A stretch of 64,000 nt of DNA, taken from an uncultured Eubacteriales bacterium (lineage in GTDB: Bacteria > Bacillota > Clostridia > Christensenellales > CAG-138). Shown piece after piece: positions 7,231-23,204 of this stretch. The DNA is taken from the NCBI GenBank assembly GCA_900545265.1, contig UQYI01000001.1, positions 4,145-68,144 of the forward strand, written 5' to 3'. The first letter of the stretch is position 1, and every line of letters starts with the position of its first letter. The translations under genes and the position numbers were made by a program. The notes under the pieces are model-generated. The model saw nothing but the letters and a program-made list of their open reading frames with translations. It had not been told where the DNA came from and searched no databases.

Positions 7231-8682
7231 TTAAATAAAGTCGATGGTATAGTCCCCCTCATGCATACGCGGGGCGCACCGCTCATACCGCTCCTGCAGC
7301 ATCTGCTTGATGTCGTACGGGTGCCGGTAATCCCGGTCCCAGATCGTGTCGCTGCAATCCGGCGTCAGCTTCAGCCGCCGCTTGATCAGTTTCAGGTTTT
7401 CCTCATACGTCCGATGCAGCCGCTCCTCTATCGCCACCTCGTCCCGATTCTTCAGCAGCAGGTATTCCTCCCGTTTGTTCTCCTTCGCCTCGATCACGCG
7501 CTCCATCCCCTCGTAGTCGTCCCAGCCGCGCACGCCTGGCGTCGGACGGGAAACGGAATATCCGCTTGCATCTCGCAGCGTCTTATGCCACAGTTCCTCA
7601 TACATCCGGAAAAAGCAATACTGGTTGAATACGACATTTACCGGCTCTCTCAGCAGTTTATAGTTCTCTACCGTCGGCGGCCTCCATTCACGCTCCGATG
7701 CCTGTTTAGAACAATCGTACCGTCTGTAATAGACAAACGTCCACCATTGGATCTCCATCACCGCGTCCCGCACGTTGGTGATCCTGCGCAGCATCGGTTC
7801 CACCACCTGGCCGAATATCTCCTCCACCGTATACCTTGTCCATTTGGTTAGGTGGAGATCGTCGCAAGAAAAAATATAATGAACCGAACGCGAATCATGA
7901 CGCCAGTCCTGCATTTTATTGGGCGTATCTTGAACTCTCATGACATACGGCAAACTCTCCAATTTTTCGGTCATAAAAGAGTCCAAATATGGCATGAAGG
8001 TTGGCTGAATGCTAATCAACATGTTAAATAATCCGTTATATGGCACCAGTCCGAACGATAGCAGCACCTCGTCGCGGATCAGCTTATACCACCTGTGGTA
8101 CTGGAACGTCGTAAACCCCAGTGCCGCCATCCGTTCCCCAAAGGTTTCCTGCGCATATGCATCCAGTCGCTGCGAAGCGGTCGGCTGCTTTCGCTTGTGC
8201 TTCCGCTCGCGTTTGTCGGCCTCCATCTGCTCTGCCAGCTCCGCGTCCGGCAGCAGCGGCAGCTTGAGATACGCCGCCAGTTCCTCGATCTGCTGCATCG
8301 TGTCCAGCGGGACGTCCATCATCAGCCGCTCCAGTGTCGCGCCGCCCGCGTCTTCTACGCCAAATGCCGCTGTGATCTGCGCCATGTTCTGCGGCGTTTG
8401 AGAGAGTCCTTCATCCAGCGATGACACACCGCCAGCCACCGCGTTGCCGCCCCGATAGAGCGCCAGCGCCACCGCATCTTCATCGAAACAGTAAAAGGCC
8501 AGCACGTCTATGCCGGTCTCGCGCGAAAGCGTCTCTGCATCCGCATACAAGATAAGCGGATTGTCCCAGTCGGGGTCATACACGCTGACCCGCCCATCCT
8601 GTTCCCTGCGGTGTGGGTTTGCAGCCTGCTGCTCCTTCGTCAACGTCCCCATCAAGTGCAGACTCCCGATCGTCAGTCCCAT
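7231..8682 (-). CDS. Hypothetical 483-aa cytoplasmic protein, candidate immunity partner of the orphan toxin
   Basis: Track ORF 7231..8853 trimmed to MGLTIGSLHL, which is preceded by AGAAAGGAGCGGAGAAAC (RBS). This start removes the overlap with the upstream gene. No signal peptide or TM segment and no motif I recognise. It sits directly 3' of a toxin cassette. Confidence 0.7.
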   Translation of the reverse strand: MGLTIGSLHLMGTLTKEQQAANPHRREQDGRVSVYDPDWDNPLILYADAETLSRETGIDVLAFYCFDEDAVALALYRGGNAVAGGVSSLDEGLSQTPQNMAQITAAFGVEDAGGATLERLMMDVPLDTMQQIEELAAYLKLPLLPDAELAEQMEADKRERKHKRKQPTASQRLDAYAQETFGERMAALGFTTFQYHRWYKLIRDEVLLSFGLVPYNGLFNMLISIQPTFMPYLDSFMTEKLESLPYVMRVQDTPNKMQDWRHDSRSVHYIFSCDDLHLTKWTRYTVEEIFGQVVEPMLRRITNVRDAVMEIQWWTFVYYRRYDCSKQASEREWRPPTVENYKLLREPVNVVFNQYCFFRMYEELWHKTLRDASGYSVSRPTPGVRGWDDYEGMERVIEAKENKREEYLLLKNRDEVAIEERLHRTYEENLKLIKRRLKLTPDCSDTIWDRDYRHPYDIKQMLQERYERCAPRMHEGDYTIDFI

Positions 8683-8767
8683 GTTTCTCCGCTCCTTTCT
8701 ACCCGTTCTGCCGCAAGAAAACCGGCGAACAGCTCCATCTCTTTTCCGAAACCCTTTCTGTCTTTCC

Positions 8768-10018
8768 TTAAAACATACGGAACGCCATAGTATTCCACCA
8801 TCTGCCGCCTCCGCCCATGGATAACCCATATCCCGGAGAATATCCGGTTGCATAGCCCGGCACGGCTGCGCCTTGCTTCTCTGGGGGGATGATCCCTATC
8901 GGAGGAATGATCGGTATGCTCCTCGGCGCCTTTACTTCGGAAGGACTATCCTCCCGCGCTTGTTCTCGCGCAGGTTCTTGTTCGGCTTGCCAAAAGGCAT
9001 ACTCTATTACTCCTGGGATTGTACTCCAGTATTCTACATTAAAAACACTATTATCCTCTGTTTTCATAACGGTTTGCCCTTGGAACTGTGTTGTTGACGG
9101 ATGCAATGGCGCCTTTACATCGATCTTTGAACTCACGACTGTCGCCCCTGTATATCGACTCAACTGCATGAGCGCCAAAGCTCTGGGTATCATCGGAAAA
9201 TTATCATTATGATGCTTTACTTCCCAAATTTCTCCTGTTTCCAGATTAAGAAGATCTACTCTTCCACGCCTTCCATTTGAGCAAGTCACCACTTTTTCCA
9301 TCACTATATTTAAATCTGTCTCCGCAATACTCACTTGTACAGCGTTATGGGCGTCCCTGTAAACTGCTATACGCTTCTTCCAGGGCCAGAAAAGCCAGCC
9401 TTTTGGATAACTCGTCTCGGCTTCATGTCCCGTCGGGTCGACCATGTTGACGGGGTTGTTGTTGCAGTAGGCGTAGAGGTGCTGCGTCCAGGGGACGGAG
9501 GCAGAGCCGGTGTAGCTGTCCTGCGAGAGGAAGCGGGCGGTGGCGGGGTTGTAGTAGCGTGCGTTCATGTACAGAAGGCCGGAGGCGTCCGCTACGCTCC
9601 CCGTGAACGTCACCTCGTTGAAGAACGTGTCCCCCGTGCTGGTCGTCACGCCGAACTCGTCGTAGTCGTAGCTCTTGACGATGGAACCCTCGCCGTCCAC
9701 GATGTTTGTCACGCTGCCACGGATATCGTACCGGTAGAAGAAGTAGTCGTCCGCGTACGGGTCCTGCCCGGTGGCTGCCTGCCCCTCAAACCGCTTGCTC
9801 GCCACGATCGTGCCCGACGGGTCGAGGATGTTCTGCGTCTGCAGCACGTACTCGTTCACCGTCGTGAACAGCAGGGCGCTGCCCGAGTAGTAGAAGTGCG
9901 TAACGACCTCGTCCTGCACGCGCGTCACGCGCTGCCCTGCGCAATACGTCCTTGCGCCGGTCGGCAGACAGATGCGCCTGCCGACCGGCACAGGGATTCC
10001 ATTCAAGTTGTTCGTCAT
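8768..10018 (-). CDS. Orphan RHS C-terminal cassette: core remnant plus PD-(D/E)xK-like toxin tip
   Basis: 416-aa ORF with its own ATG. The first ~195 aa are near-identical to the last core segment of RHS-2 (THFYY.GSALLFTTVNEYVLQTQNILDP...ARYYNPATARFLSQD...YAYCNNNPVNMVDPTGH). An unrelated 218-aa tail follows (8771-9424), containing GRVDLLNLETGEIWEVK (D-x10-E-x-K). Confidence 0.8.
   Translation of the reverse strand: MTNNLNGIPVPVGRRICLPTGARTYCAGQRVTRVQDEVVTHFYYSGSALLFTTVNEYVLQTQNILDPSGTIVASKRFEGQAATGQDPYADDYFFYRYDIRGSVTNIVDGEGSIVKSYDYDEFGVTTSTGDTFFNEVTFTGSVADASGLLYMNARYYNPATARFLSQDSYTGSASVPWTQHLYAYCNNNPVNMVDPTGHEAETSYPKGWLFWPWKKRIAVYRDAHNAVQVSIAETDLNIVMEKVVTCSNGRRGRVDLLNLETGEIWEVKHHNDNFPMIPRALALMQLSRYTGATVVSSKIDVKAPLHPSTTQFQGQTVMKTEDNSVFNVEYWSTIPGVIEYAFWQAEQEPAREQAREDSPSEVKAPRSIPIIPPIGIIPPEKQGAAVPGYATGYSPGYGLSMGGGGRWWNTMAFRMF
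9429..9942 (-). repeat. Direct repeat, copy 1 (RHS core 3' segment, orphan)
   Basis: Hand alignment to 12491-13005 gives about 40 differences in ~515 nt, with a ~120-nt block showing no differences. The repeat ends exactly at the codons for VDPTGH. Confidence 0.85.
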
Positions 10019-10144: not shown

Positions 10145-10875
10145 CTATGGCATATACAGTTCGGCGTATCCAAGCAGCTCCTCGTCATTGAAAAGCAAAT
10201 TGGCCCCTGGCAAAAAGCCGACATACTCCTGTTCCAGTAGGAGAAAAAAGCAGTCTCGCGTAGCGACCGTTTCCCCCAGTCCCACCAGACGATCAACAGC
10301 GCGCTTTCCGCAACCCGTAACGAGAGCACCTCTTCGCTGATGGACTCTTTCGGAATGTAAGGAACGCCATCGTCCATTGCAAATTCCCCTATTGCAATGT
10401 TGACGATATGGCTCTCGGCGTCAAAAGACCGCACAATCCCCGGCGCCTCTGTCAGCGCGCGATTTCCTGCCGCCAAGTCCGCTTTGCAAGCGTCCTACGG
10501 AATGCTCATCGGATGCAGCTTCGCCTGCGAAGACTGCAAATCCATCTGATAGCGGCAGCCATAGGCAAAGCCGGAATCTCGATACGATAGCTCGCCCAGG
10601 CAATACTTCTGTGTATCATCCTGCAGGTAAACCAGCTCATGCCCCTCCGTTGCAGACTCCTCAAGCGTAATCGAGCACGCAGTCGGATCGTTCGACCACT
10701 TGTCACCCAGATCATAGCAAAGTCCAAATCCATCCAGCCAGAAAACGATGTCGCACCCGTACCTTTCTCCTGCTGTGATCTGAATGTCTGCAGGATTCGG
10801 CTTTCCCTGCCGCGGCGCGCAGGAGAGGGACAAAGCGGCACAGCAGCAGACGAGCGCCAAAAGAAGCTTTTTCAT
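10145..10875 (-). pseudogene. Decayed paralogue of the 10994-11794 lipoprotein (N-terminal 126-aa ORF still intact)
   Basis: ORF 10495..10875 has lipoprotein signal MKKLLLALVCCCAALSLSC and shares the motif G.DI..W.(D/G)(G)FG.CYDL with the upstream lipoprotein. It ends at TAG 10495-10497, and the same frame stays open afterwards. After a frameshift near 10300 the reading ...AVDRLVGLGETVATRDCFFLLLEQEYVGF...LYMP-stop resembles ...RDILLGLMERGYFET of the intact paralogue. Confidence 0.5.
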
Positions 10876-10993: not shown

Positions 10994-11794
10994 TTAAGGG
11001 TTGCAGATCTCCACCACCAGCCTGATCTGATCCCCTTCTATAACAAGCCAACACGGCGTTTCAAAATATCCCCGTTCCATCAGGCCCAGTAAAATATCCC
11101 GTTTGACCAGCATATTGGCAATGTTTTCATCAAAACAGCTTATGACGCCTAGCGCCTGCTCCTGCAACGCGCACTGCATCTGCTCTTTCTGTACGTCTTT
11201 TTCAATCCAGACCGCATCCGACAATACCATGTCACATTCCGACACATAAATCTGGCCCTCTTGCTCAGAGGCAGAAACCACTCCGCCAATTCTGCGCTCC
11301 CAGTCATCGTACAGCGCTATGGGCGTACAAGGCAAAAGATCGGCTTTTATGTCATAGTAGGTATAAAAATCATAGTAGACGCCATAGCGGTTCGGCTTGC
11401 TGTAAGTCCTCAACAGTCCAATGCGGTATCGCCTGTCCCCGTGACGCAACCAAACCGGATATCCGTAACCTGCCGGTTCCTGATAATCCAGCAGCGGATG
11501 TCCCTGCTCAAGCAATCGGTGTTCATCCTGACAACCATCCAGAAAAACGTCTTCTCCAATTTCTATACTGCATGCCTGCAGGCAAAAAGCCTCTTCATCA
11601 AGATCATAGCAAAATCCAAAATCGCCAATCCAGCAAATGATATCACGCCCTACCTCATCACCGGAACAAACAGATACTACAGGCAACGCACCGTTTGCTG
11701 TTGGCTCGCGATTGTGCTCTCCCAATTCAGTTGAAGAACATGCGACTGTCATTACAATTGTAACAAGAATGAACAGACATACGATTTTCTTCAT
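10994..11794 (-). CDS. Lipoprotein, candidate immunity protein for the NlpC/P60 tip of RHS-2
   Basis: Track ORF 10994..11812. The likelier start is MKKIVCLFILVTIVMTVACSS (lipobox VAC) with AAGAGGA 8 nt upstream. The alternative ATG at 11812 overlaps the RHS-2 stop by 1 nt (TAATG). The gene is immediately 3' of the toxin gene. Confidence 0.75.
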   Translation of the reverse strand: MKKIVCLFILVTIVMTVACSSTELGEHNREPTANGALPVVSVCSGDEVGRDIICWIGDFGFCYDLDEEAFCLQACSIEIGEDVFLDGCQDEHRLLEQGHPLLDYQEPAGYGYPVWLRHGDRRYRIGLLRTYSKPNRYGVYYDFYTYYDIKADLLPCTPIALYDDWERRIGGVVSASEQEGQIYVSECDMVLSDAVWIEKDVQKEQMQCALQEQALGVISCFDENIANMLVKRDILLGLMERGYFETPCWLVIEGDQIRLVVEICNP

Positions 11795-11811
11795 GATTGT
11801 ATCCTCTTTCA

Positions 11812-14800
11812 TTACCCGCTATATCTGGCGTATCCTAAAAATTTTGCATTTTCGTTACCACCGTACATTTGATAATTTTCAACTGGTCTGAATGCTACTC
11901 CACCGCCGGATTCTGTTGCGTCTATCATATACCCATCACCAACATACACCGCAACATGGCAGGGACGACCCTCTTGCTTGGTCCAATAAATCAAATCCCC
12001 CGGAATCAAATCATCGGTAGTAAAGCTGTTTGTTTCGTAAAATTTCCATTTTTCATTGGCAGCTCCAAACTCTCCCGGGTTGTCACGTTTTAAATAATGC
12101 ACCTGTAAACGAGTGGTATTTGGAAAGCTAATATCCCCACTTGAATGAACCGCTGCTGCTACCAGTTCTGAACAATCCATGGTTCCAGGGGTTCGAACAT
12201 ACCTCTGTTGCGTAGCATCATATGGGGAATAAGGTGTTCCCAAATATTGGGCAGCAGTTTCAATCCATTGTAATGCTACAGTAGACGCCCCGGAACTTTT
12301 GGCCACCTGGATTGCTTTTTCACCGTCCGTTACTGCCCCTGCTGTCGGACTGGGAGTTGGGACCACCTGCATTCTTACAGGTGTAGGCTCCGGTTTCTCT
12401 GTAGGTTCCGGCTCGGGAGGTTGGTTACTACATCCTGTAGTAGCTGCCGTCACCAATGCAATCAATATAACGACCAGCCAGGAGGAATGCCCCGTCGGAT
12501 CGACCATGTTGACGGGGTTGTTGTTGCAGTAGGCATACAGGTGCTGCGTCCAGGGGGTAGAGGCGGAGCCGGTGTAGGTATCCTGCGACAGGAAACGGGC
12601 GGTGGCGGGGTTGTAGTAGCGGGCGTTCATGTAGAGCAGGCCGGAGGCATCCGCTACGCTACCGGTGAAAGTAACCTCGTTGAAGAACGTATCGCCCGTG
12701 CTGGTCGTCACGCCGAACTCGTCGTAGTCGTAGCTCTTGACGATGGAACCCTCGCCGTCCACGATGTTTGTCACGCTGCCACGGATATCGTACCGGTAGA
12801 AGAAGTAGTCGTCCGCATACGGGTCTTGCCCGGTAGCCGCCTGCCCCTCGAACCGCTTGCTCGCCACGATTGAACCCGCCGGGTCAAGGATGTTCTGTGT
12901 CTGCAGCACGTACTCGTTCACCGTCGTAAACAGCAGGGCAGAGCCCGTGTAGTAGAAGTGCGTAATGACCTCGTCCTCCACGCGCGTCACGCGCTGCCCC
13001 TGCGCGTTGTACGCATACGTCGCGCTCGTCGACAGCGGGATCACCGCGTTGTTCGAGATGTTTGTAGAGGTCAGCCGGTTCGCCAGATCGTAGCCATAGT
13101 TCGTGGTCGTCGTCACGCCCGTGCCCGTCTGCACCTGCTGCGTCTGGTTCCCCCGCGCGTCATAGGTGTAGGTCGTCACCGCCGTGCCCTGCTGCACCCG
13201 CGTCAGCTGGTTCAGGTAGTTGTAGGTATACGTCTCCGCCGTCTCCGTGCCCTGCTGCCGCGTGAGCCGGTTCCCCACCGCGTCGTACGTATACGTCGTG
13301 GTCGTCCCGTCGTACGCCGCCGAGATCAGGCGGTTGCCCAGGTCATACTGGTACGTCCGCGTCTTCATCGTGCTGCCGCTGTACGCCTCCGTCACCGCTT
13401 CGGTCAGGATGTTCCCGTTCCCGTCGTACGTCAGGTTCGTCTCCTCCCGCACCGTCCGCGTCTCCCCGTCCACGTCCGTATACGTCAGCTTCACCGGCAG
13501 GCCGAAATCGTTGTAGGTATATGCCAGTTCGGTTGTCAAGGTGCCGCCGGTCAGGAACGACGTGTTGTCCGTGACCGTCTCGATATCCCCATAGGCGTTA
13601 TACGCATATGAGCGGATCAGCTTCTTGTTGCTTGTTGGGGAGGTTGTGCTTGCCGAGCCCGCATCCAGATAGATCGCAGAGAGCCGCCCATCAGCATCAT
13701 AAGTATACCACAGGATGTGCAGCTCCGTATTGCCGGGATTGAACGAGCCCTGCGCGCTCTCCTTCGCGTATGAGATCGCCGTGACCTGCCCCGCGCTATT
13801 GTACCGGTAGTTCACTGCCAGCGCCCCGGCCTCCGCCTCCGTCTCCTGCCGCTGCTGCGTCACCCGCCCGTACTGGTCGTACGAATACGCCGTGGTCACG
13901 CTCTGCTGCGTCTCGCCGCTGCCGGTAATCTGCACCGCGCTCTCCAGACGGCTCCCACCATTGCTATAGGCGTAGGAGATGGCGATCTCCGGCGCTTGTG
14001 CCGATGCGGAGGCAAAGTACTGCTCGCTCACGACGTTGCCCACCGCATCGTAGGCATACCGCACGACGCTGCCGTCCTCCCGTGTGACTGACGTTACCTG
14101 CCCGTGCGCATCGTACGTATACGCCGTGGTCATGCTCTTCGTCGCGTCGTCCGGGTCGGTCACCACGTCGCGCAGCTTGCGCCCGCTGTTATCAAACACC
14201 GTGGTGGTTGTTACGCCTTTTGCGCTGGTCACAGCATTCGCCACCCCGCCGGTTACGCTCTGGTCGTAGGCATAGGCCGTCGTGGCCGTTACGCCAGAGG
14301 AGAGCGGCTGGCGCACCTCAGTGAGGCGGGAGAGAGCATCGTAGGTATAGGTGGTGGTGGTACCGCGGCCATCGGTGACGGAGGTGTTGTTACCCAACAT
14401 ATCATAGGCCGCCGAAGTTGTCAAATCAGCCGATGGGACATAACCGGAAAGCCTCTCGCCGTGACTGCCCAGCTTTGTACGGTTTGCTGCGGCAACGGCC
14501 GCTGTCAGCGTTCGATTGCCCAGCGCATCGTACTCTGCACGCACGACTCGATTGCCCGTTGCGCCTCCGAGAGTCTCCACCACGGTCTGGTTGCCCATGT
14601 AATCGTAGCGGTAGACGACCGTCATGCCTCCGCCAGTTTGCTGGACGGCACGGCCGTTTTGATCGTACCATGTGGTGGATGTGCGTTCCTCAGGATCGGT
14701 CACGGTCACGCGGCGCACGCCGTAGCTATCGCTGCCCAGATAGGTGTAACTGGTCGTCAGCGCTCCGTTGCCCGAACCAATGCGGGCGGTGCTCACGCGC

Positions 14801-17800: not shown

Positions 17801-18228
17801 TTATCCACTACAAATTTTGCTCCGCTATATATCGCGGTATCGGAGGAATCGGCCTTTGTATAGGTTGCCGCCCATGTACCGTTCGCAGAGTCAGTCTGAA
17901 TCGTATGCGTCAGCCCTGCATCGACCTGCCGGCTACCCTCGGCCTTGGTCCAAGTCGCCGTTTGGCTGGCTGTGTTGCCCGCCTGATCCCATGCGGTCAA
18001 GGTCAACGTATACGTCTGCTCATTGTCGAGTCCGGTGATGTTCCAGCGTGCAATAATCGCATCCGTTAGCGTTGTCGTGCCGGTTGCAATTGTTGTTTTT
18101 TTCCGTAGAAGTTCCTGTCCCGAGATGATACTCCAGTTTCCATCCGGAAAAATCATTTGCGTTTGTGGTAATTGTCGCGCGTACCTGCACAATCCCACCC
18201 GTGTCCGAGACGACAGTCGGGCCCGCAA
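11812..18228 (-). CDS. RHS/YD-repeat body of RHS-2 with C-terminal NlpC/P60 domain (5' part displaced by frameshift)
   Basis: 2138-aa ORF with dozens of YD repeats (YTYD, YAYD, YEYD...). Core end LYMNARYYNPATARFLSQDTYTG...YAYCNNNPVNMVDPTGH, followed by a 224-aa tip. The first ~45 listed residues (MRARLSSRTRVGLCRY...) look out-of-frame. The real sequence joins the 18020-20536 ORF at the A7 run. Confidence 0.9.
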   Translation of the reverse strand: MRARLSSRTRVGLCRYARQLPQTQMIFPDGNWSIISGQELLRKKTTIATGTTTLTDAIIARWNITGLDNEQTYTLTLTAWDQAGNTASQTATWTKAEGSRQVDAGLTHTIQTDSANGTWAATYTKADSSDTAIYSGAKFVVDNVVRDTQTEDEPGLSFTLPSGFAEGSTHYLYVMAFDEAGEPVYSHSTYEKQHLFLPANGTSGFTLDGVAVTDGIAALTGESGMLITPVLALSGTISYIDLIVNQTVPSGSSIGYEISVDGDTWQTITPVSTDGGVTVTKANRLYLYGSNTSSSVRIRATLGKGTATASPTIDQIYAETRYIFYGSSELIQTAFLTDARGFTELNNTEVLESGGLTLSNASESGTVQSTRRLLAGEAEATRLIVDASIPDGAGITYHLSTDGGTTWQAVPTVAADDQSTWNAVTAGGEEIVLRATLEANADGEKPVLSSWSLEVRAAMPGEAQTVSLIDPPNNLSAFSGANNLTVLRWAPSETEGVTYSVYRSETPYFTLSNSTLVASGLTDCNWSDFNLNYGKTFYYLVAAVKNGRVSEPTNQVVGTVVDEDELEKQLGLQDYWSYAQFSTDSGAGYVNVANGNVVYQTSDLVVADPFFAMAMRRTFNSQTTSKTALGVGWDYSFNTVLMREYDSIGTEVGLILKDGDGSLHRFALQEDGTYASAPGTRMVLAYIEATADAPAEYTITRKDNITYHFDAQTMRLKSFTNLAGAALTLTYDARGNVVEVANSVGDKLTLTYKVQRTSPSTRASRAPEATNYEEVLPNEVDYLYVNEHIDMLESLTWTSTEGDQPSITYTYAYDAQDRLISATHALSGNSGYTEIFTYSENGLSTIKNPDNRVYTLTYDNAGRLVGIAYPGGQEAAEFAYSAATTTVKTKIGDDAAYTVATYTYVPATGVITRCEDADGHPINYTYTDDLLLASVSYTNLVEGAASETPIVQSYTYDETTRDLTRMAITQGDTLLGETLYQNYQYNQPKTVKVKNGSSYQTTTYTYNAAGQVLTAVDPAGKMTTNAYNDYGYLIATTDRNGGYVSYVYDAKGRVTTISSANGAGQTPFSVVRYTYDDYGRTATAATDGMEDAVAYEYDWRGLLTKKTYANGAYEAYTYSVAGLALTARDVEGVVTTYTYDSMGRVSTARIGSGNGALTTSYTYLGSDSYGVRRVTVTDPEERTSTTWYDQNGRAVQQTGGGMTVVYRYDYMGNQTVVETLGGATGNRVVRAEYDALGNRTLTAAVAAANRTKLGSHGERLSGYVPSADLTTSAAYDMLGNNTSVTDGRGTTTTYTYDALSRLTEVRQPLSSGVTATTAYAYDQSVTGGVANAVTSAKGVTTTTVFDNSGRKLRDVVTDPDDATKSMTTAYTYDAHGQVTSVTREDGSVVRYAYDAVGNVVSEQYFASASAQAPEIAISYAYSNGGSRLESAVQITGSGETQQSVTTAYSYDQYGRVTQQRQETEAEAGALAVNYRYNSAGQVTAISYAKESAQGSFNPGNTELHILWYTYDADGRLSAIYLDAGSASTTSPTSNKKLIRSYAYNAYGDIETVTDNTSFLTGGTLTTELAYTYNDFGLPVKLTYTDVDGETRTVREETNLTYDGNGNILTEAVTEAYSGSTMKTRTYQYDLGNRLISAAYDGTTTTYTYDAVGNRLTRQQGTETAETYTYNYLNQLTRVQQGTAVTTYTYDARGNQTQQVQTGTGVTTTTNYGYDLANRLTSTNISNNAVIPLSTSATYAYNAQGQRVTRVEDEVITHFYYTGSALLFTTVNEYVLQTQNILDPAGSIVASKRFEGQAATGQDPYADDYFFYRYDIRGSVTNIVDGEGSIVKSYDYDEFGVTTSTGDTFFNEVTFTGSVADASGLLYMNARYYNPATARFLSQDTYTGSASTPWTQHLYAYCNNNPVNMVDPTGHSSWLVVILIALVTAATTGCSNQPPEPEPTEKPEPTPVRMQVVPTPSPTAGAVTDGEKAIQVAKSSGASTVALQWIETAAQYLGTPYSPYDATQQRYVRTPGTMDCSELVAAAVHSSGDISFPNTTRLQVHYLKRDNPGEFGAANEKWKFYETNSFTTDDLIPGDLIYWTKQEGRPCHVAVYVGDGYMIDATESGGGVAFRPVENYQMYGGNENAKFLGYARYSG
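11815..12279 (-). other. NlpC/P60 cysteine peptidase domain (toxin tip of RHS-2)
   Basis: YLGTPYSPYD...GTMDCSELVAAAV (catalytic Cys context) ...GDLIYW...CHVAVYVGDGYMIDA (catalytic His context). It is preceded by a Pro/Glu/Thr linker and the hydrophobic segment SSWLVVILIALVTAATTGC (12430-12486). Confidence 0.8.
12491..13005 (-). repeat. Direct repeat, copy 2 (RHS core 3' segment, RHS-2)
   Basis: See 9429-9942. Same orientation, 3062 bp apart. Confidence 0.85.
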
Positions 18229-20536
18229 TTACTGGTGCGATGATGTCGCGCTGATATGGTGTGGAAGAGCACTTTGCTGCACCAATGTTGCCCGCTGCAT
18301 CCTTGGCTCTGACCCACACGTACTGCGTACCAACAGCTGGCTCGGTGAGCGTATGTGTAAGCGCGTTGGAAGAGGGAAGATCTGAGAAGGATTCGGGTGC
18401 CGTAGTGTTTGAAGTGCTCAGCGCGTATTGGTAGATAACAGCCGAGGCATCGCTTGCAGCCGTGTGCGTAACGGTAACATTGCCGGTTGTCCAAGTAGTC
18501 GGTGAGACCGTCACACTGCTGGGTGCTGTGGGCGGTGTCAGATCGCCAACCGTAATCGTATTTGACACGGCATATTCGGAGCTGCCCACGCTGTTCTTTG
18601 CACGAACTTTTGCATAGTAGGTTGTGTTATCATTCTGGTTTGAAAATGTATAGCTGGTTCCTGTTCTGCTGACTGTCTGTACAAGCGTTCCCGCACGGTA
18701 TAGCTGCACATCATAACCGGTCGCGCCGGACGCTGCGCTCCACGATACGGTGATGGTAGCCTTTGTACCATTCTGCGTGTAAGCAGTTGTTATAGCTGTC
18801 GGCGCATTGGGCGCAGAGTTATATGTGACGACCAGCTTGGGCCTGTTTGCTGTGGTCGCGCCTTCGGTCGATGTAAAACGCTTGTAACGCGCTTCGGTCT
18901 CGTTCGGTATTTTCATGACGAATTTGCGTAGCTTACTGCTGTTGCCATACCATTCTTGCACCTTCGCCGTCATATCCCAGCTATAAGAACCGATGTTTTT
19001 AACCACCGTGCTGGAAAAATGCGTTGATTCAAAGGAAGGTTGTGTATTCCATGTCACAGTAGTAATGGAGAAGTTTGAAGTCACCTGATGCAGCCGTACC
19101 GATGGCGCGGAATTACCGGCATATTCCTCGTAGCAGGTCAAAGTCGCACCGGTGATCTGTTTGTTGGTTCCAATGGCGGTGATGAGGCTGGTAAAATCAA
19201 AGTAAACGCGTAACCGGTCGCCATTGGACATACAGCCCATCTTCAGGCCGGTCTCGGTATGATAGTTCCTAGTGCCACTGTATTGATCTGTCACATGTGT
19301 ATCCGCAATGTAGTTTGCACCACTATAGGTGGCCGAGGGATCTAATGATACTGGATACACGCGATCGCTGCTTGTCAACCATTCGCGATTCGGCGTAAGC
19401 GTGTACAGATAGCTTCCGCCCTCCAGAAGTTCGAGCTTTACATCAATGTCGTACGAAAAATTACAGTCTATATCTGATGAATCATACATCACTGGTGCTG
19501 GGATTGCGGCGACAATCTCTGCTGTGCGGCTATCAACCAAATAGGTATTGCCGTCCTCACGAAGCAAGGGTACCAGACCGCTCAACGTCAACAGAAAAGA
19601 GAAGCTGGCCTGCGTTGGAATCGAAAGAAACACAATATCTTCTTTCAGACCATTGCCCGTTGGCGTCAATACCAAGTCAATGTTGTTGCCATACACGTTC
19701 TTATAGCGTAGGCTACTATATGTTGAACGACTCGCTTCGGCATCTCCGTTCATACTGAAGATGCTGCTTCCATCAGCAAGATAACGTATATCAAAGGCAT
19801 TCAACGGCAAAAGGCCGTTTTGCGGTACCGGTGCAAGCGAAATTGAGCGACCGTCACGGCTTAGCGTTACAAGCCGGTTTTCGGTGATTGTTGTTTGAAA
19901 ATCTATGCGTACCGGCGACTTGGCGCTCGTAAGCGTCTGGAGACCATCTTGTGATCCCACTGTGATTTCAGGCTCAATCATGCGCCACTTGCCGCTGGAA
20001 GTCTTGTAACGGACGGGCGAGAGGTATAGCTCAACCGTGCCGCTTCCATCCTCATCTTCATTACGGATGATGTATGCCTCGAGATCTTCTGCGGTTAGTT
20101 CCGGTTGCAGTTCGAGCAACTCTTCATACTCGGCCATGGTTATAACATCACGCTCTTGCTTCGTGCCAGAAAACAGAGAGATACGTGTATCGATCTGTTC
20201 TTCTTCTAACTGCAATCCATCTTGCGATGTAATAGATGCATCTGGAAGGGAGGATGATTCTACGGCTTCTTCGCCATCTTCATCCGATTGTCCCGGCACC
20301 GTTTCTGACGGTTCCGCGACCGATTCAGCTTCTTCTCCTTGTGATGCTGGAGCGGATTCGTCCTCTGATGGCTCTGAAGTTGACAAAGTTATATCATTAA
20401 AAGACTCCCTTGCCACATTGGGTGAACTCATCTTTCCTGTGCTCAACGCCAATGCTGTTGCAGGTGAAATAATGTATCCTGACAAGAGAAAAACTGCAAC
20501 CAGAAACACACTCAGCGCTCGCCTGAACCCCTTCAT
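18020..20536 (-). CDS. N-terminal module of RHS-2: signal peptide, acidic linker, DNRLRE-type domain, FN3/Ig-like repeats
   Basis: 838-aa ORF. Signal MKGFRRALSVFLVAVFLLSGYIISPATALA. VYPVSLDPSATYSG...GDRLRVYFDFTSL...TVTWNTQPSF (DNRLRE-like). Then PNAPTAIT...YYAKVRAKNSVGSS and PPTAPSS...YVWVRAKDAAGN FN3-like units. The last ~25 residues (EKNNNCNRHDNANGCDYCTLEHHRTRQ) look like out-of-frame read-through. Confidence 0.85.
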   Translation of the reverse strand: MKGFRRALSVFLVAVFLLSGYIISPATALALSTGKMSSPNVARESFNDITLSTSEPSEDESAPASQGEEAESVAEPSETVPGQSDEDGEEAVESSSLPDASITSQDGLQLEEEQIDTRISLFSGTKQERDVITMAEYEELLELQPELTAEDLEAYIIRNEDEDGSGTVELYLSPVRYKTSSGKWRMIEPEITVGSQDGLQTLTSAKSPVRIDFQTTITENRLVTLSRDGRSISLAPVPQNGLLPLNAFDIRYLADGSSIFSMNGDAEASRSTYSSLRYKNVYGNNIDLVLTPTGNGLKEDIVFLSIPTQASFSFLLTLSGLVPLLREDGNTYLVDSRTAEIVAAIPAPVMYDSSDIDCNFSYDIDVKLELLEGGSYLYTLTPNREWLTSSDRVYPVSLDPSATYSGANYIADTHVTDQYSGTRNYHTETGLKMGCMSNGDRLRVYFDFTSLITAIGTNKQITGATLTCYEEYAGNSAPSVRLHQVTSNFSITTVTWNTQPSFESTHFSSTVVKNIGSYSWDMTAKVQEWYGNSSKLRKFVMKIPNETEARYKRFTSTEGATTANRPKLVVTYNSAPNAPTAITTAYTQNGTKATITVSWSAASGATGYDVQLYRAGTLVQTVSRTGTSYTFSNQNDNTTYYAKVRAKNSVGSSEYAVSNTITVGDLTPPTAPSSVTVSPTTWTTGNVTVTHTAASDASAVIYQYALSTSNTTAPESFSDLPSSNALTHTLTEPAVGTQYVWVRAKDAAGNIGAAKCSSTPYQRDIIAPVIAGPTVVSDTGGIVQVRATITTNANDFSGWKLEYHLGTGTSTEKNNNCNRHDNANGCDYCTLEHHRTRQ
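18096..18102. repeat. A7/T7 homopolymer at the RHS-2 frameshift
   Basis: Plus strand has ttttttt; the coding strand reads GGAACTTCTACGGAAAAAAACAACAATTGC. With A6 the reading becomes GTSTEKTTIATGTTTLTDAIIARWNITG, which continues the Ig-like domain into the 2138-aa frame. Confidence 0.85.
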
Positions 20537-20912: not shown

Positions 20913-20994
20913 GATTGCAAGAAAAACGTATTTGACAATATTGTTTTTCAAATACGCACGCAATCTTGCAATCGGACAAAAGTCTGTCTATAGG
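20913..20994 (+). promoter_or_regulatory. Nested inverted repeats (operator-like) overlapping a candidate promoter of the WYL gene
   Basis: GATTGCAAG-aaaaa-CGTATTTGA-caatattgttttt-TCAAATACG-cacgcaat-CTTGCAATC: two perfect 9-bp palindromic arm pairs. The right outer arm contains TTGCAA (20966-20971), followed by a 17-nt spacer and TATAGG (20989-20994). Confidence 0.5.
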
Positions 20995-21019
20995 GTTAGG
21001 GATGAAAGGAGACCCGGGT

Positions 21020-21979
21020 ATGGATACGCAGATCAGCAAGCGGCGCCTACTCATGCTGTTAAAACTGCTTCGAGAGCAGACGGACGAGGAACACTCGCTA
21101 TCCACGGCTGAAATCATCGAATACTTTGATAAACAGGGTATCGTAATCGAACGGCGAACGGTGGTTGCAGATATTGAACTGCTCTGTGAAGCGGGCTATG
21201 ACATCGTGACCGTCAGAGGAAAGCAGAACCGATTCTTTTTTGGCGTACGGGAGCTTGAGTTGCCAGAGGTGAAGCTGCTAATTGATGCGGTATATGCCTC
21301 GAAGTTTATCACACCCGCAAAGAGTGAGGCACTGATCAAGAAGCTATCTCAATTTGTGAGTGTGTACCAGGCGGATTGCCTGCAACGCCACTTGTATGTT
21401 AACGAACGCATCAAGTCCGTCAACGAAACCGTCTACTATTCTGCAGACGTGATCCGCGCGGCCATCGAACAAAAGCGTCAAATCACCTTTCAGTACTATG
21501 AATACACGCCTACCAAGCATAAAATATTGAAGCACAAGGGTAAGGTTTATCGCTTCAGCCCGTATGACTTGATATGGAACGAGGATAGGTATTATGTTCT
21601 TGGATATTCAAACAGCCACAATAAGGTTATTAGCTTTCGCGTAGACAGAATGTACAAGGTCGCCCTCAGTGATGCTTTTGCCATTACTCCACCAAGTGAT
21701 TACTCCATTGCCACATACGGCAGCAAGGTTTTCGATATGTTTGACGGGCATAATGCAACGGTCGCGCTACGCTGTCAAAACGATCTCATGCGGGTTATCG
21801 TAGACAGATTTGGCGAGGATGTTTGCACAGAGGTATTGGACAAAGAACATTTTCTTGCAACGGTTGAAGTTTCCATCAGCCCAACGTTCTTTGGCTGGGT
21901 TTTCCAGTTTGCCGATGGAATTAGAATTGTTTCTCCACCAGAAATTGTCCAAGAATACAAGGAAATGCTGACAAGCTGA
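21020..21979 (+). CDS. HTH + WYL domain transcriptional regulator
   Basis: Track ORF 20966..21979 trimmed to MDTQISKRR, which follows AAAGGAGA. N-terminal wHTH-like LLMLLKLLREQTDEEHSLSTAEIIEYF. WYL signature KVYRFSPYDLIWNEDRYYVLGYS. C-terminal WCX-like part. Confidence 0.85.
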   Translation: MDTQISKRRLLMLLKLLREQTDEEHSLSTAEIIEYFDKQGIVIERRTVVADIELLCEAGYDIVTVRGKQNRFFFGVRELELPEVKLLIDAVYASKFITPAKSEALIKKLSQFVSVYQADCLQRHLYVNERIKSVNETVYYSADVIRAAIEQKRQITFQYYEYTPTKHKILKHKGKVYRFSPYDLIWNEDRYYVLGYSNSHNKVISFRVDRMYKVALSDAFAITPPSDYSIATYGSKVFDMFDGHNATVALRCQNDLMRVIVDRFGEDVCTEVLDKEHFLATVEVSISPTFFGWVFQFADGIRIVSPPEIVQEYKEMLTS

Positions 21980-22105: not shown

Positions 22106-22537
22106 ATGAAAATGAGCATCACATTTGGTAGTTATATCAGAGAGAAGTGCAAGGAGAAAAGTCTGTCCCTCCGCGCGCTCGCGGGGAAGACTGGTCTTTC
22201 GCCCGTGTATCTGAGCAACATTGAGAACGACCGTTGCCCTGCGCCCTCACGCAAGTATCAAGACAGGACGGTCGAGGTGCTGGACCTGACCCGCAGCGAG
22301 GCAGAAATTCTGTATGACCTCGCCGCTGATTCGCAGATAAATGGTGTGTCGCAGGATTTACCAGACTATATTATGCGGCACGATGTTGTGCGTGTTGCAC
22401 TCCGTACTGCAAAGGATGTGGACGCAACGGACGAGGAATGGCAGACATTCATTGAAACGCTCAGACAGCGCGACCAACAGAGGGAGGGGAGTACAGATGA
22501 ACAACGGTATTCGCTACTATCGTCAGCCAGTGATTGA
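22106..22537 (+). CDS. XRE-family HTH protein
   Basis: Start MKMSITF follows AGGAGG. LSLRALAGKTGLSPVYLSNIEND is a classic HTH_3 motif. The gene overlaps the next gene by 41 nt. Confidence 0.85.
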   Translation: MKMSITFGSYIREKCKEKSLSLRALAGKTGLSPVYLSNIENDRCPAPSRKYQDRTVEVLDLTRSEAEILYDLAADSQINGVSQDLPDYIMRHDVVRVALRTAKDVDATDEEWQTFIETLRQRDQQREGSTDEQRYSLLSSASD

Positions 22538-23204
22538 TCTGATTGCGAGGAACGTGCTGGACGGATATGACCGCCGCTTACTGATCGGCAAGCCAACCGC
22601 GATTCCAATTGATGATATCATTGAATCGCTGGGCCTTATTGTGGAGTACCATTATCTCCGCAACTGTGACCGCATCTGCGGAGAAACGGTGTTTGATACA
22701 GCTGAAGTTATCGTGTATGACATGGAAAAACGGAAGTATAAAACCATCATCGTCAAAGGTGGCACGATTATTGCTGACGCACACCTGTTGGACAGCGGCA
22801 ACGAGGGAAGGTTGCGATTCACCTTCGCTCACGAATTGGCGCATTGGATACTGCACAAGAACATCTTTTGTGGCTCACAGTATTCCGCAGCCATGACAAA
22901 AGTGCCGATCACAGAGGACTGCAAGTTAAGCTCTGAGGTTGACCGCGCCATAGAGCGTCAAGCAGATATGCTTGGTACAGCCCTTATTATGCCCATTACA
23001 CAGGTCAAGCGGGCGTACTATGCCATCAGTCGTAATCAAGGCAGCACACAGATTTTTTCACGCAGCAGATTGACAAATTTACCGGGTCATTGCATCCTAT
23101 CAGAGGAAACACCGCTATCGGTGGGGAGCATTGCTTCCTCTTCTGGGCTTCCTTTGTTGAAGTTCAGGCTGATAGCCGGTGTTTTTTTATGTTCACGTAT
23201 TTAA
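22497..23204 (+). CDS. ImmA/IrrE-family (COG2856) zinc metallopeptidase
   Basis: Track ORF 22341..23204 trimmed to MNNGIRYY, which follows GGAGGGGAG. HEXXH motif FAHELAHWILH, with downstream ERQADMLGTALIMP. Paired with the XRE gene, as in ImmR/ImmA-type modules. Confidence 0.8.
   Translation: MNNGIRYYRQPVIDLIARNVLDGYDRRLLIGKPTAIPIDDIIESLGLIVEYHYLRNCDRICGETVFDTAEVIVYDMEKRKYKTIIVKGGTIIADAHLLDSGNEGRLRFTFAHELAHWILHKNIFCGSQYSAAMTKVPITEDCKLSSEVDRAIERQADMLGTALIMPITQVKRAYYAISRNQGSTQIFSRSRLTNLPGHCILSEETPLSVGSIASSSGLPLLKFRLIAGVFLCSRI

Follow-up and report, generated by a model that had tools for sequence, protein, structure and literature searches.

WapA-type RHS toxins (Bacillus subtilis WapA; Streptococcus suis WapA, PMC12704120) combine a Sec signal, N-terminal wall- or carbohydrate-binding domains, and a shell of DUF6531 and RHS repeats; their core ends in DPxGH and is followed by a polymorphic C-terminal tip, a downstream immunity gene, and orphan cassettes. 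Here we describe a locus with the same plan, all of whose features lie on the minus strand of a 64,000-nucleotide (nt) stretch of DNA (the window) from an uncultured Eubacteriales bacterium of the Christensenellales (GenBank assembly GCA_900545265.1, contig UQYI01000001.1, positions 4,145 to 68,144). The characterized tips of B. subtilis WapA are tRNases with cytoplasmic immunity proteins; in contrast, the tip encoded here is a predicted NlpC/P60 peptidase, its candidate immunity protein is a lipoprotein, and a hydrophobic segment with a lipobox-like end lies between the predicted release site and the enzyme. Some S. suis WapA tips act outside the cytoplasm (PMC12704120); among the WapA tips that we found described, none has an NlpC/P60 domain or a lipobox-type anchor. 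Taken as a whole, we consider it moderately probable that this is the locus of an RHS/YD-repeat polymorphic toxin of gut Clostridia, WapA-like and exported by Sec, whose endopeptidase cargo would be tethered to the membrane via this anchor module and neutralized by an inhibitor that is itself membrane tethered.

Parts of this arrangement have precedents elsewhere. Papain-like NlpC/P60 peptidases serve as wall toxins in Tox-NlpC/P60 tips (PMC3482391) and in type VI secretion (T6SS) amidase effector pairs such as Tse1/Tae-Tsi/Tai, where immunity is also extracytoplasmic. The 2012 catalogue of Zhang et al. (PMC3482391) lists Tox-NlpC/P60 tips, carried by RHS proteins, in Bacteroidetes and delta-proteobacteria, with delivery by T6SS, Photorhabdus virulence cassettes (PVC), or TcdB/TcaC, and gives no immunity family; the present case instead involves Sec-exported proteins of Clostridia, a putative membrane-anchor module, and new candidate lipoprotein immunity families. 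NlpC-type lipoproteins (Escherichia coli NlpC and MepS/Spr; P0047 among our relatives) share with the cargo a hydrophobic core, a lipobox Cys, a flexible linker, an NlpC/P60 domain and, for MepS, the fold. However, they are housekeeping enzymes with a real N-terminal signal and a Lys/Arg n-region (the start of a signal peptide), whereas the module in the window is internal and polymorphic, has partner immunity genes, and is predicted to become accessible only once RHS autoproteolysis has occurred. Tse5 of Pseudomonas aeruginosa (RhsP1; PMC10684867, PMC9637101) is likewise a case of an RHS cocoon that holds a hydrophobic, membrane-inserting C-terminal fragment, but there the cargo is itself a pore-forming toxin delivered by T6SS, while here a short lipobox helix precedes a soluble enzyme. 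SitA of Myxococcus (PMC10433427) and the lipobox-linked Lipocone toxins (PMC12419801) are toxins tethered by a lipobox and linker, with an adjoining immunity gene; they differ in having a genuine N-terminal signal peptide, in being lipidated in the producer, and in not being RHS cargo. As for inhibitors, IseA blocks the NlpC/P60 DL-endopeptidase LytE (PDB 8i2e), and TipC is a membrane-anchored, extracytoplasmic immunity protein against TelC, which acts in the inner-wall zone; the lipoprotein described here has no detectable sequence relation to either. In the literature that we searched, we found no account of an RHS protein in which a lipobox-type anchor module lies between the release site and an enzymatic tip, and the arrangement appears so far to be confined to one gut lineage.

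The tip begins where the RHS core ends: NCBIfam Rhs_assc_core (TIGR03696) matches over positions 1-76 of 76 at 74.1 bits (cut-off, 32.5), and its last residue is the H of DPTGH. A sequence-only reading of this DNA had placed the start of the tip at this point and had described a lipobox-bearing hydrophobic segment, a Pro/Glu/Thr linker, and an NlpC/P60 domain after it. All three are borne out below, and the strings that it quoted are all present on the minus strand, with 10994-12486 comprising the tip and the first lipoprotein gene. Cleavage after a DPTGH-type site is established for RHS and Tc proteins (e.g., PMC8636562, PMC8765631), and by analogy the tip is probably cut off here as well.

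The first 19 residues after DPTGH, SSWLVVILIALVTAATTGC, fit the core of the PROSITE lipoprotein pattern PS51257, with the Cys as residue 19. This Cys lies near residue 1933 of the 2138-aa open reading frame (ORF) but only 19 residues from the predicted postcleavage N terminus; the lipoprotein signal class calls for a distance of 15-35 residues from the N terminus. The hydrophobic region (h-region) spans 16 residues, of which only about 10 to 13 form a strongly hydrophobic run; its 15-residue Kyte-Doolittle maximum of 2.39 falls within the range of genuine lipoprotein signal peptides from neighbors and related loci (2.1-3.0). The linker that follows gave a weak match to the TonB spacer. We gauged chance occurrence by running the PS51257 core pattern with a hydrophobicity filter over the window's long open frames (38,380 residues). 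Five hits were returned: two N-terminal lipoprotein signals (one of them that of the immunity gene), two other hydrophobic segments (one deep within a 654-aa ORF), and the anchor site. The same pattern and filter found none among 38 RHS tips from a genome scan covering one genome per species.

Protein and metagenome searches uncovered four diverged anchor variants directly after DPTGH: TM1, S[SA]WLVVILIALVTAATTGCSNQ; TM2, NPLLISLLVAITAV[TI]LTGCNNQ; TM3, SALLIALLVAITVVTLTGCNNS; and TM4, NPLLIALLIAIATAAVAGCNNQ. The protein clusters P0002, P0004, and P0006 contain more than 90 sequences. All four match the PS51257 core (IALVTAATTGC, VAITAVTLTGC, VAITVVTLTGC, and IAIATAAVAGC), and all four place Cys at residue 19 after DPTGH, which equals the Met1-Cys19 distance in the signal peptide of the immunity lipoprotein. 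TM1 and TM2 differ nonsynonymously at 14 of 20 codons, with every replacement preserving the hydrophobic character of the stretch; their Gly-Cys is unchanged and written with different codons (GGA TGT versus GGG TGC), and Gly-Cys-[SN]-N is invariant among the variants. These patterns support the view that the lipoprotein-like segment is conserved and modular, not accidental. The variants also appear in most combinations with the catalytic types A, B, and C described below: human-gut metagenome contigs contain TM1 with A, B, or C, TM2 with B or C, and TM3 with C'. A conserved stretch of the linker, PVRMQVVPxPSPAPA, is where anchor variants and catalytic types join, and its PVRMQVVPxPSP part is an apparent recombination joint. 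By sequence, then, several NlpC/P60-type tips within one lineage share an exchangeable anchor module made up of h-region, lipobox, and linker.

Two scans bear on the distribution of this module. A DNA pattern for PVRMQVVP matched 99 metagenome stretches, ten of which are real; most of the matches are due to chance, in an unrelated conserved protein (…CPVRMQVVP…DPLGED…). The genome scan (genome_contigs, one genome per species), for which the query was the core-plus-anchor alignment, returned 39 RHS loci with the lipobox module in none of them, and these serve only as outgroups and as a taxonomic hint. The nearest RHS cores in that collection belong to Christensenellales or Christensenellaceae metagenome-assembled genomes, Saccharofermentans, and Guopingia.

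Several lines of evidence identify the tip as an enzyme. Pfam PF00877 matches it at 48.1 bits (cut-off, 23; E = 1.2e-12), and the NCBIfam models RipC, RipB, and DIP1281 match in part. An alignment with 15 relatives shows Cys105 (DCSELV; within 12160-12177), His177 (HVAVYVG; within 11938-11958), and Asp189 (IDAT; within 11905-11925) in Cys-before-His order; Cys105 is invariant across the 16 aligned sequences, and the counterparts of His177 and Asp189 in full-length relatives are the catalytic His and the third polar residue. A sequence search of the PDB with the tip found NlpC/P60 wall hydrolases. The AlphaFold2 (AF2) model (predicted local distance difference test [pLDDT], 84.7) starts with a helix (residues 3-16) and a disordered segment (17-53), followed by a confidently predicted core, over most of which pLDDT exceeds 90. 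With E ≤ 1e-3, Foldseek gave 48 hits in the PDB; the ones listed belong to the NlpC/P60 proteins and are for the most part peptidoglycan endopeptidases, including Clostridioides difficile Acd24020, LytE, CwlO, RipA/B, MepS/Spr, and SagA, with a probability of 1.00 for Acd24020, LytE, RipA, and MepS. Sequence and predicted fold thus support the tip as a canonical member of the NlpC/P60 family.

From its homology, the enzyme would be expected to cleave peptidoglycan stem peptides. A permuted branch of NlpC/P60 (Tox-Act1, TseH) targets lipids (PMC12994826); we rule out membership in that group, since the Cys-before-His order and the peptidoglycan-endopeptidase structural neighbors place the tip among the peptidoglycan-cleaving enzymes. 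We also reject a housekeeping autolysin, because the tips are polymorphic, cassettes occur in arrays, and the association with lipoprotein genes is strict.

The anchor module precedes at least three catalytic types. The window tip defines type A, a rare subtype found in 13 of 1.84 billion representative proteins at E ≤ 1e-10; type B (P0002) is 48% identical to it, and type C, which includes a variant, C', is more distantly related, a Cys-peptidase (DYDCAQFV…HHVAIYAGNG). As a side observation, a type-B' tip in locus L070 (minus strand, offset 8176) loses similarity to B tips after about residue 150 and continues into a Cys/Arg/Gly-rich tail; its 3' end looks frameshifted, and the immunity gene behind it is intact.

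How could an NlpC/P60 domain come to sit behind a lipobox inside an RHS protein? The tip can be aligned with P0047, a proteobacterial NlpC lipoprotein of the ordinary kind, starting at the h-region of the P0047 signal peptide, and the cargo therefore corresponds to an NlpC-type lipoprotein architecture minus its Met-Lys/Arg n-region. This alignment also favors a different account, in which a stand-alone two-gene unit of a lipoprotein NlpC/P60 hydrolase or toxin and its lipoprotein inhibitor recombined into the RHS 3' end just after the n-region. The h-region and lipobox would then be relics, harmless inside the shell and without any role in anchoring or lipidation, and the tip would act as a soluble wall hydrolase. 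In keeping with such an origin, stand-alone toxin/immunity pairs with a lipobox and unstructured linker exist in Gram-positive bacteria (PMC12419801), closely related catalytic domains sit in other toxin scaffolds without the hydrophobic segment, and the module is limited to one lineage. However, the four variants have diverged by up to 70% in the h-region and yet keep their hydrophobicity, Gly-Cys, and the exact Cys19 spacing. Neutral decay is further disfavored because the module, instead of disappearing, has been combined anew with three or more catalytic types. We regard a relic as rather unlikely, although it is the chief alternative to the tether.

The gene behind the tip encodes a lipoprotein with its own signal peptide, as had been read from the sequence. 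Its first in-frame ATG, at 11812, overlaps by one base (TAATG) the RHS stop codon, a TAA at 11812-11814, and the two genes had accordingly been described as coupled by a 1-nt overlap. This is probably wrong: the second ATG, at 11794, follows a Shine-Dalgarno sequence (AAGAGGA, 7-nt spacer) and corresponds to the start used by the homologues P0011 and P0012. We therefore place the start of the immunity gene most likely at 11794, 17 nt after the RHS stop.

The family, which had not been recognized from the sequence, is indeed unannotated: the 266-aa protein has no significant match in Pfam or NCBIfam, a profile of its family found no PDB chain at E ≤ 1, and the PDB profile, Pfam, and NCBIfam searches revealed no sequence similarity to Tsi1/Tai, IseA, or any solved immunity protein. 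A word-indexed search of 5.8 billion proteins, with the single sequence and a profile, returned only four clusters; the family is either rare or too divergent for this kind of search.

The proposal that this lipoprotein is the cognate immunity protein gained support from the way tips and lipoproteins vary together. In locus L006, a type-A tip (P0003) is followed by lipoprotein P0013; the two are 51% and 26% identical to their counterparts in the window, and P0013 can be aligned with the window lipoprotein from end to end, sharing G.D…,.CY, and a C-terminal E..NP. More broadly, type-A tips are followed by a 272-aa family, type-B tips by a paralogous family of 275 or 247 aa, and type-C/C' tips by LRR_5 lipoproteins. 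This pairing holds, whatever the anchor variant, in 16 of 17 anchor-bearing tips; the 17th lies at a contig end without downstream sequence. An orphan copy of the immunity gene, 93% identical, is present in a toxin-less immunity island (L005), and orphan immunity genes in such islands are typical of polymorphic-toxin systems. The downstream lipoprotein gene thus behaves like a cognate immunity gene, and its product would presumably act by binding the tip and protecting the cell.

A second lipoprotein paralogue had also been proposed. The shared motif, G.DI..W..FG.CYDL, is indeed common to both ORFs, but the second is not an intact gene. Its 126-aa ORF (10875..10495) is what remains open at the start of a gene of about 247 codons, now decayed and interrupted by a stop codon and an indel (Table 1), with homology extending to about 10148. 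In L070 and L140, a type-B' tip precedes an intact 247-aa orthologue with 90% DNA identity. At its 5' end, up to about 10804, the decayed gene instead resembles the 275-aa gene of L001, which suggests that it is of recombinant origin.

Two further observations concern the lipoproteins of related loci. The LRR_5 lipoproteins that follow type-C/C' tips (311-347 aa; L001, 4704-5651 and 9283-10326; L002, 1137-2180) are candidate immunity proteins of a leucine-rich-repeat (LRR) type. In L006 (99-2688), the P0003 fragment and its lipoprotein adjoin genes for a phage integrase and a large serine recombinase, which suggests that this toxin/immunity cassette travels on a mobile element.

In the model that we favor, Sec would export the RHS precursor, and the RHS shell would fold outside the cell, enclose the tip, and cut it free. 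Once let go at a neighboring cell, the tip could insert its uncharged, hydrophobic N terminus into the outer face of the cytoplasmic membrane in the manner of a signal anchor, with lipid modification optional; the Pro-rich spacer would keep the endopeptidase in the inner-wall zone, where it could cleave the stem peptides of peptidoglycan. Sibling cells would be shielded one to one by the coencoded lipoprotein on the same membrane surface. Insertion and tethering of the tip are suggested by the anchor sequence, and the tether reading would account for why the cognate immunity proteins are all lipoproteins, since both toxin and inhibitor would then be restricted to one surface.

A stronger form of this model would have the target cell lipidate the tip. 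With a diacylglycerol added to Cys19 by Lgt and the h-region cleaved off by Lsp, the enzyme would end up covalently lipid-anchored beside the site of wall synthesis. As the new N terminus lacks Lys, Arg, Asp, and Glu, it could be pulled across the target's membrane from outside by the membrane potential, giving the N-in/C-out topology of a prolipoprotein. Judging from sequence features, lipidation could only follow autoproteolysis outside the producer, before which no lipoprotein-like N terminus exists, and then insertion from outside; in the producer, Sec topology would put the anchor Cys on the wrong side of the membrane. We consider lipidation by the target improbable. We also rejected the idea that the tip is made as an independent lipoprotein from an internal start: the only nearby Met has no Shine-Dalgarno sequence before it and is Leu in other variants, and the n-region would be acidic.

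A number of findings weigh against a membrane-tethered cargo. None of the variants (which start with SSW, SAW, NPL, or SAL) has the Lys/Arg that the PROSITE n-region rule demands within the first seven residues. With an uncharged n-region and a segment that is not N terminal, a conventional Sec/Lgt/Lsp substrate in the producer is excluded; the anchor segment is outside the lipoprotein signal-peptide class as defined, and closely similar to it from the h-region on. Related NlpC/P60 tips (P0003, P0015, P0027, P0028, and P0030) lack the hydrophobic segment and sit in different polymorphic-toxin scaffolds; among them, P0003, the closest relative of the type-A domain (the 51% identical tip of L006), is nevertheless paired with a lipoprotein from the same family of immunity proteins. 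The anchor-bearing sequences all come from one narrow lineage, so the conservation of Gly-Cys amounts to few independent comparisons. The AF2 model of the immunity protein, built from a 5-sequence alignment, reached a pLDDT of only 45.8, too poor for a fold search, and offers no direct support for tip binding. Finally, the RHS gene in the window is frameshifted at an A7 run, and this copy may therefore be inactive or misassembled.

A further concern is that an internal hydrophobic segment could serve as a stop-transfer sequence during Sec export. The shell would then be pinned to the producer for surface display, with the NlpC/P60 domain held in the cytoplasm until release. The 19-residue Kyte-Doolittle mean of 1.89 is at or above the classical transmembrane threshold, and an N-terminal Sec signal precedes the segment, as stop-transfer topology requires. 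However, the hydrophobic segment starts only two or three residues after the core domain ends, and a shell so tightly pinned would be unable to close around its cargo; the short strongly hydrophobic run is typical of a signal-peptide h-region; a conserved lipobox Cys would have no role at the cytoplasmic end of a helix; and cognate immunity proteins that are all extracytoplasmic lipoproteins would be pointless against a cytoplasmic enzyme. We think a producer-side anchor of this kind very unlikely.

Hydrophobic cargo as such is not peculiar to this locus. Of the 38 related RHS tips from the genome scan, 6 or 7 have strongly hydrophobic, Gly-rich segments directly after DPTGH, and hydrophobic cargo thus fits the export route of this RHS clade. 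The arrangement had been called unusual: this stands for the combination of a lipobox with an enzyme, but not for hydrophobic cargo after DPTGH, which is common in the clade and known for Tse5. As separate observations, Christensenellales-type tips in seven loci (L009, L012, L021, L025, L027, L029, and L043) open with long, Gly/Ala-rich hydrophobic segments that lack Cys and are probably membrane-disrupting toxins; the genes downstream of them mostly do not encode lipoproteins.

The recurrence of such segments before unrelated cargos, together with the membrane-triggered delivery model for Tse5 (PMC10684867), would also suit a helix that merely assists packaging or exit, by contacting the interior or plug of the RHS cocoon or, transiently, the target membrane and so triggering release without a lasting anchor. 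Such a helper would leave unexplained Gly-Cys-[SN]-N, the signal-peptide-like spacing, and the long Pro-rich spacer, and other tips of the same RHS genes do without a helix of this kind; we think this explanation, too, very unlikely.

Turning to the locus as a whole, the assignment to RHS/WapA proteins agrees with every feature that we checked except the interrupted reading frame. RHS repeats (PF05593; E = 2.6e-57) occur as seven stretches in the 2138-aa ORF, which also contains DUF6531. The 838-aa ORF that encodes the 5' part overlaps the main ORF at 18020-18228 in a different frame. Because the Ig-like domain reads through the A7 homopolymer when one base is added or removed, we treat the two as parts of a single indel-bearing gene of about 2,950 codons; the frame break could be an assembly error, a pseudogene mutation, or a site of slippage. 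Traits of polymorphic-toxin systems are seen in the orphan tip (8768-10018), in the cassette arrays of L001, and in the covariation of tip and lipoprotein types.

The orphan cassette has a tip with no match in Pfam or NCBIfam and a Pro/Gly-rich tail. It overlaps by 86 nt a 540-aa ORF, likewise without a family match, which is present as a tandem duplicate in the immunity island L005. P0008, a 306-aa protein on an ENA contig, is a fusion in which the N terminus of the orphan cassette in the window runs into the TM1 anchor module as far as PEPTEKPEP, beyond which it is out of frame and resembles the sequence around 8850; it looks like a natural deletion or recombinant between the Pro-rich linker of the main gene and the Pro-rich tail of the orphan.

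Divergent from the RHS gene on the plus strand is a gene for an HTH-WYL-WCX regulator (20966-21979), followed by one for an IrrE/M78-like peptidase (22341-23204); these may regulate the toxin locus or belong to a separate defense or mobile element. We saw no SrtB/SecF-like partner genes adjoining the RHS gene, and searches of the window for rRNA, tRNA, and Rfam families gave no matches.

Table 1. Features of the RHS toxin locus, in window coordinates
Feature	Position	Strand	Details
RHS 5' part, 838-aa ORF	18020..20536	-	Sec-type signal peptide MKGFRRALSVFLVAVFLLSGYIISPATALA; CBM96; fn3/Ig-like domains
A7 homopolymer GGAAAAAAAC, reading-frame switch	18095..18104	-	Ig-like domain continuous with one base added or removed
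Main RHS ORF, 2138 aa	11812..18228	-	DUF6531, RHS/YD repeats, RHS-associated core, toxin tip
RHS repeat-associated core domain	12487..12726	-	TIGR03696; predicted autoproteolytic release site DPTGH, 12487-12501
Putative anchor module, part 1, SSWLVVILIALVTAATTGC	12430..12486	-	h-region and lipobox TTG-C; Cys codon 12430-12432
Putative anchor module, part 2, Pro/Glu/Thr-rich disordered linker SNQPPEPEPTEKPEPTPVRMQVVPTPSPTAGAVTDG	12322..12429	-	About 36 residues
NlpC/P60 catalytic domain with N-terminal helical extension	11815..12321	-	Cys105, His177, Asp189
Candidate cognate immunity lipoprotein, 266 aa	10994..11794	-	Signal peptide MKKIVCLFILVTIVMTVAC, then SS; Cys19; motif G.D...W...G.CY
Decayed paralogous immunity gene	10148..10875	-	TAG at 10495-10497 for a Trp codon; 1-nt indel near 10270
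Orphan RHS C-terminal cassette, 416 aa	8768..10018	-	Same core end and DPTGH; unrelated tip without hydrophobic segment
540-aa ORF after orphan tip, candidate immunity gene	7231..8853	-	Duplicated in related immunity island L005

The route by which the large Sec-exported RHS/WapA toxins of Gram-positive bacteria get to their targets has not been settled (PMC12704120), and a wall-hydrolase cargo needs no membrane crossing. In the locus described here, the cargo is a predicted wall hydrolase seemingly built for the membrane surface, with its candidate antidote tethered on that same surface. Such a design would show that RHS tips can hold a swappable localization module between release site and catalytic domain, much as CdiA-CT toxins hold entry domains. 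If lipidation by the target were true, the missing n-region would be an adaptation to insertion from outside rather than a defect, and the tip would represent a new way of arming a toxin. For the abundant and poorly studied Clostridia of the human gut, the two unannotated lipoprotein families and the LRR_5 lipoproteins are candidate inhibitors of NlpC/P60 endopeptidases.

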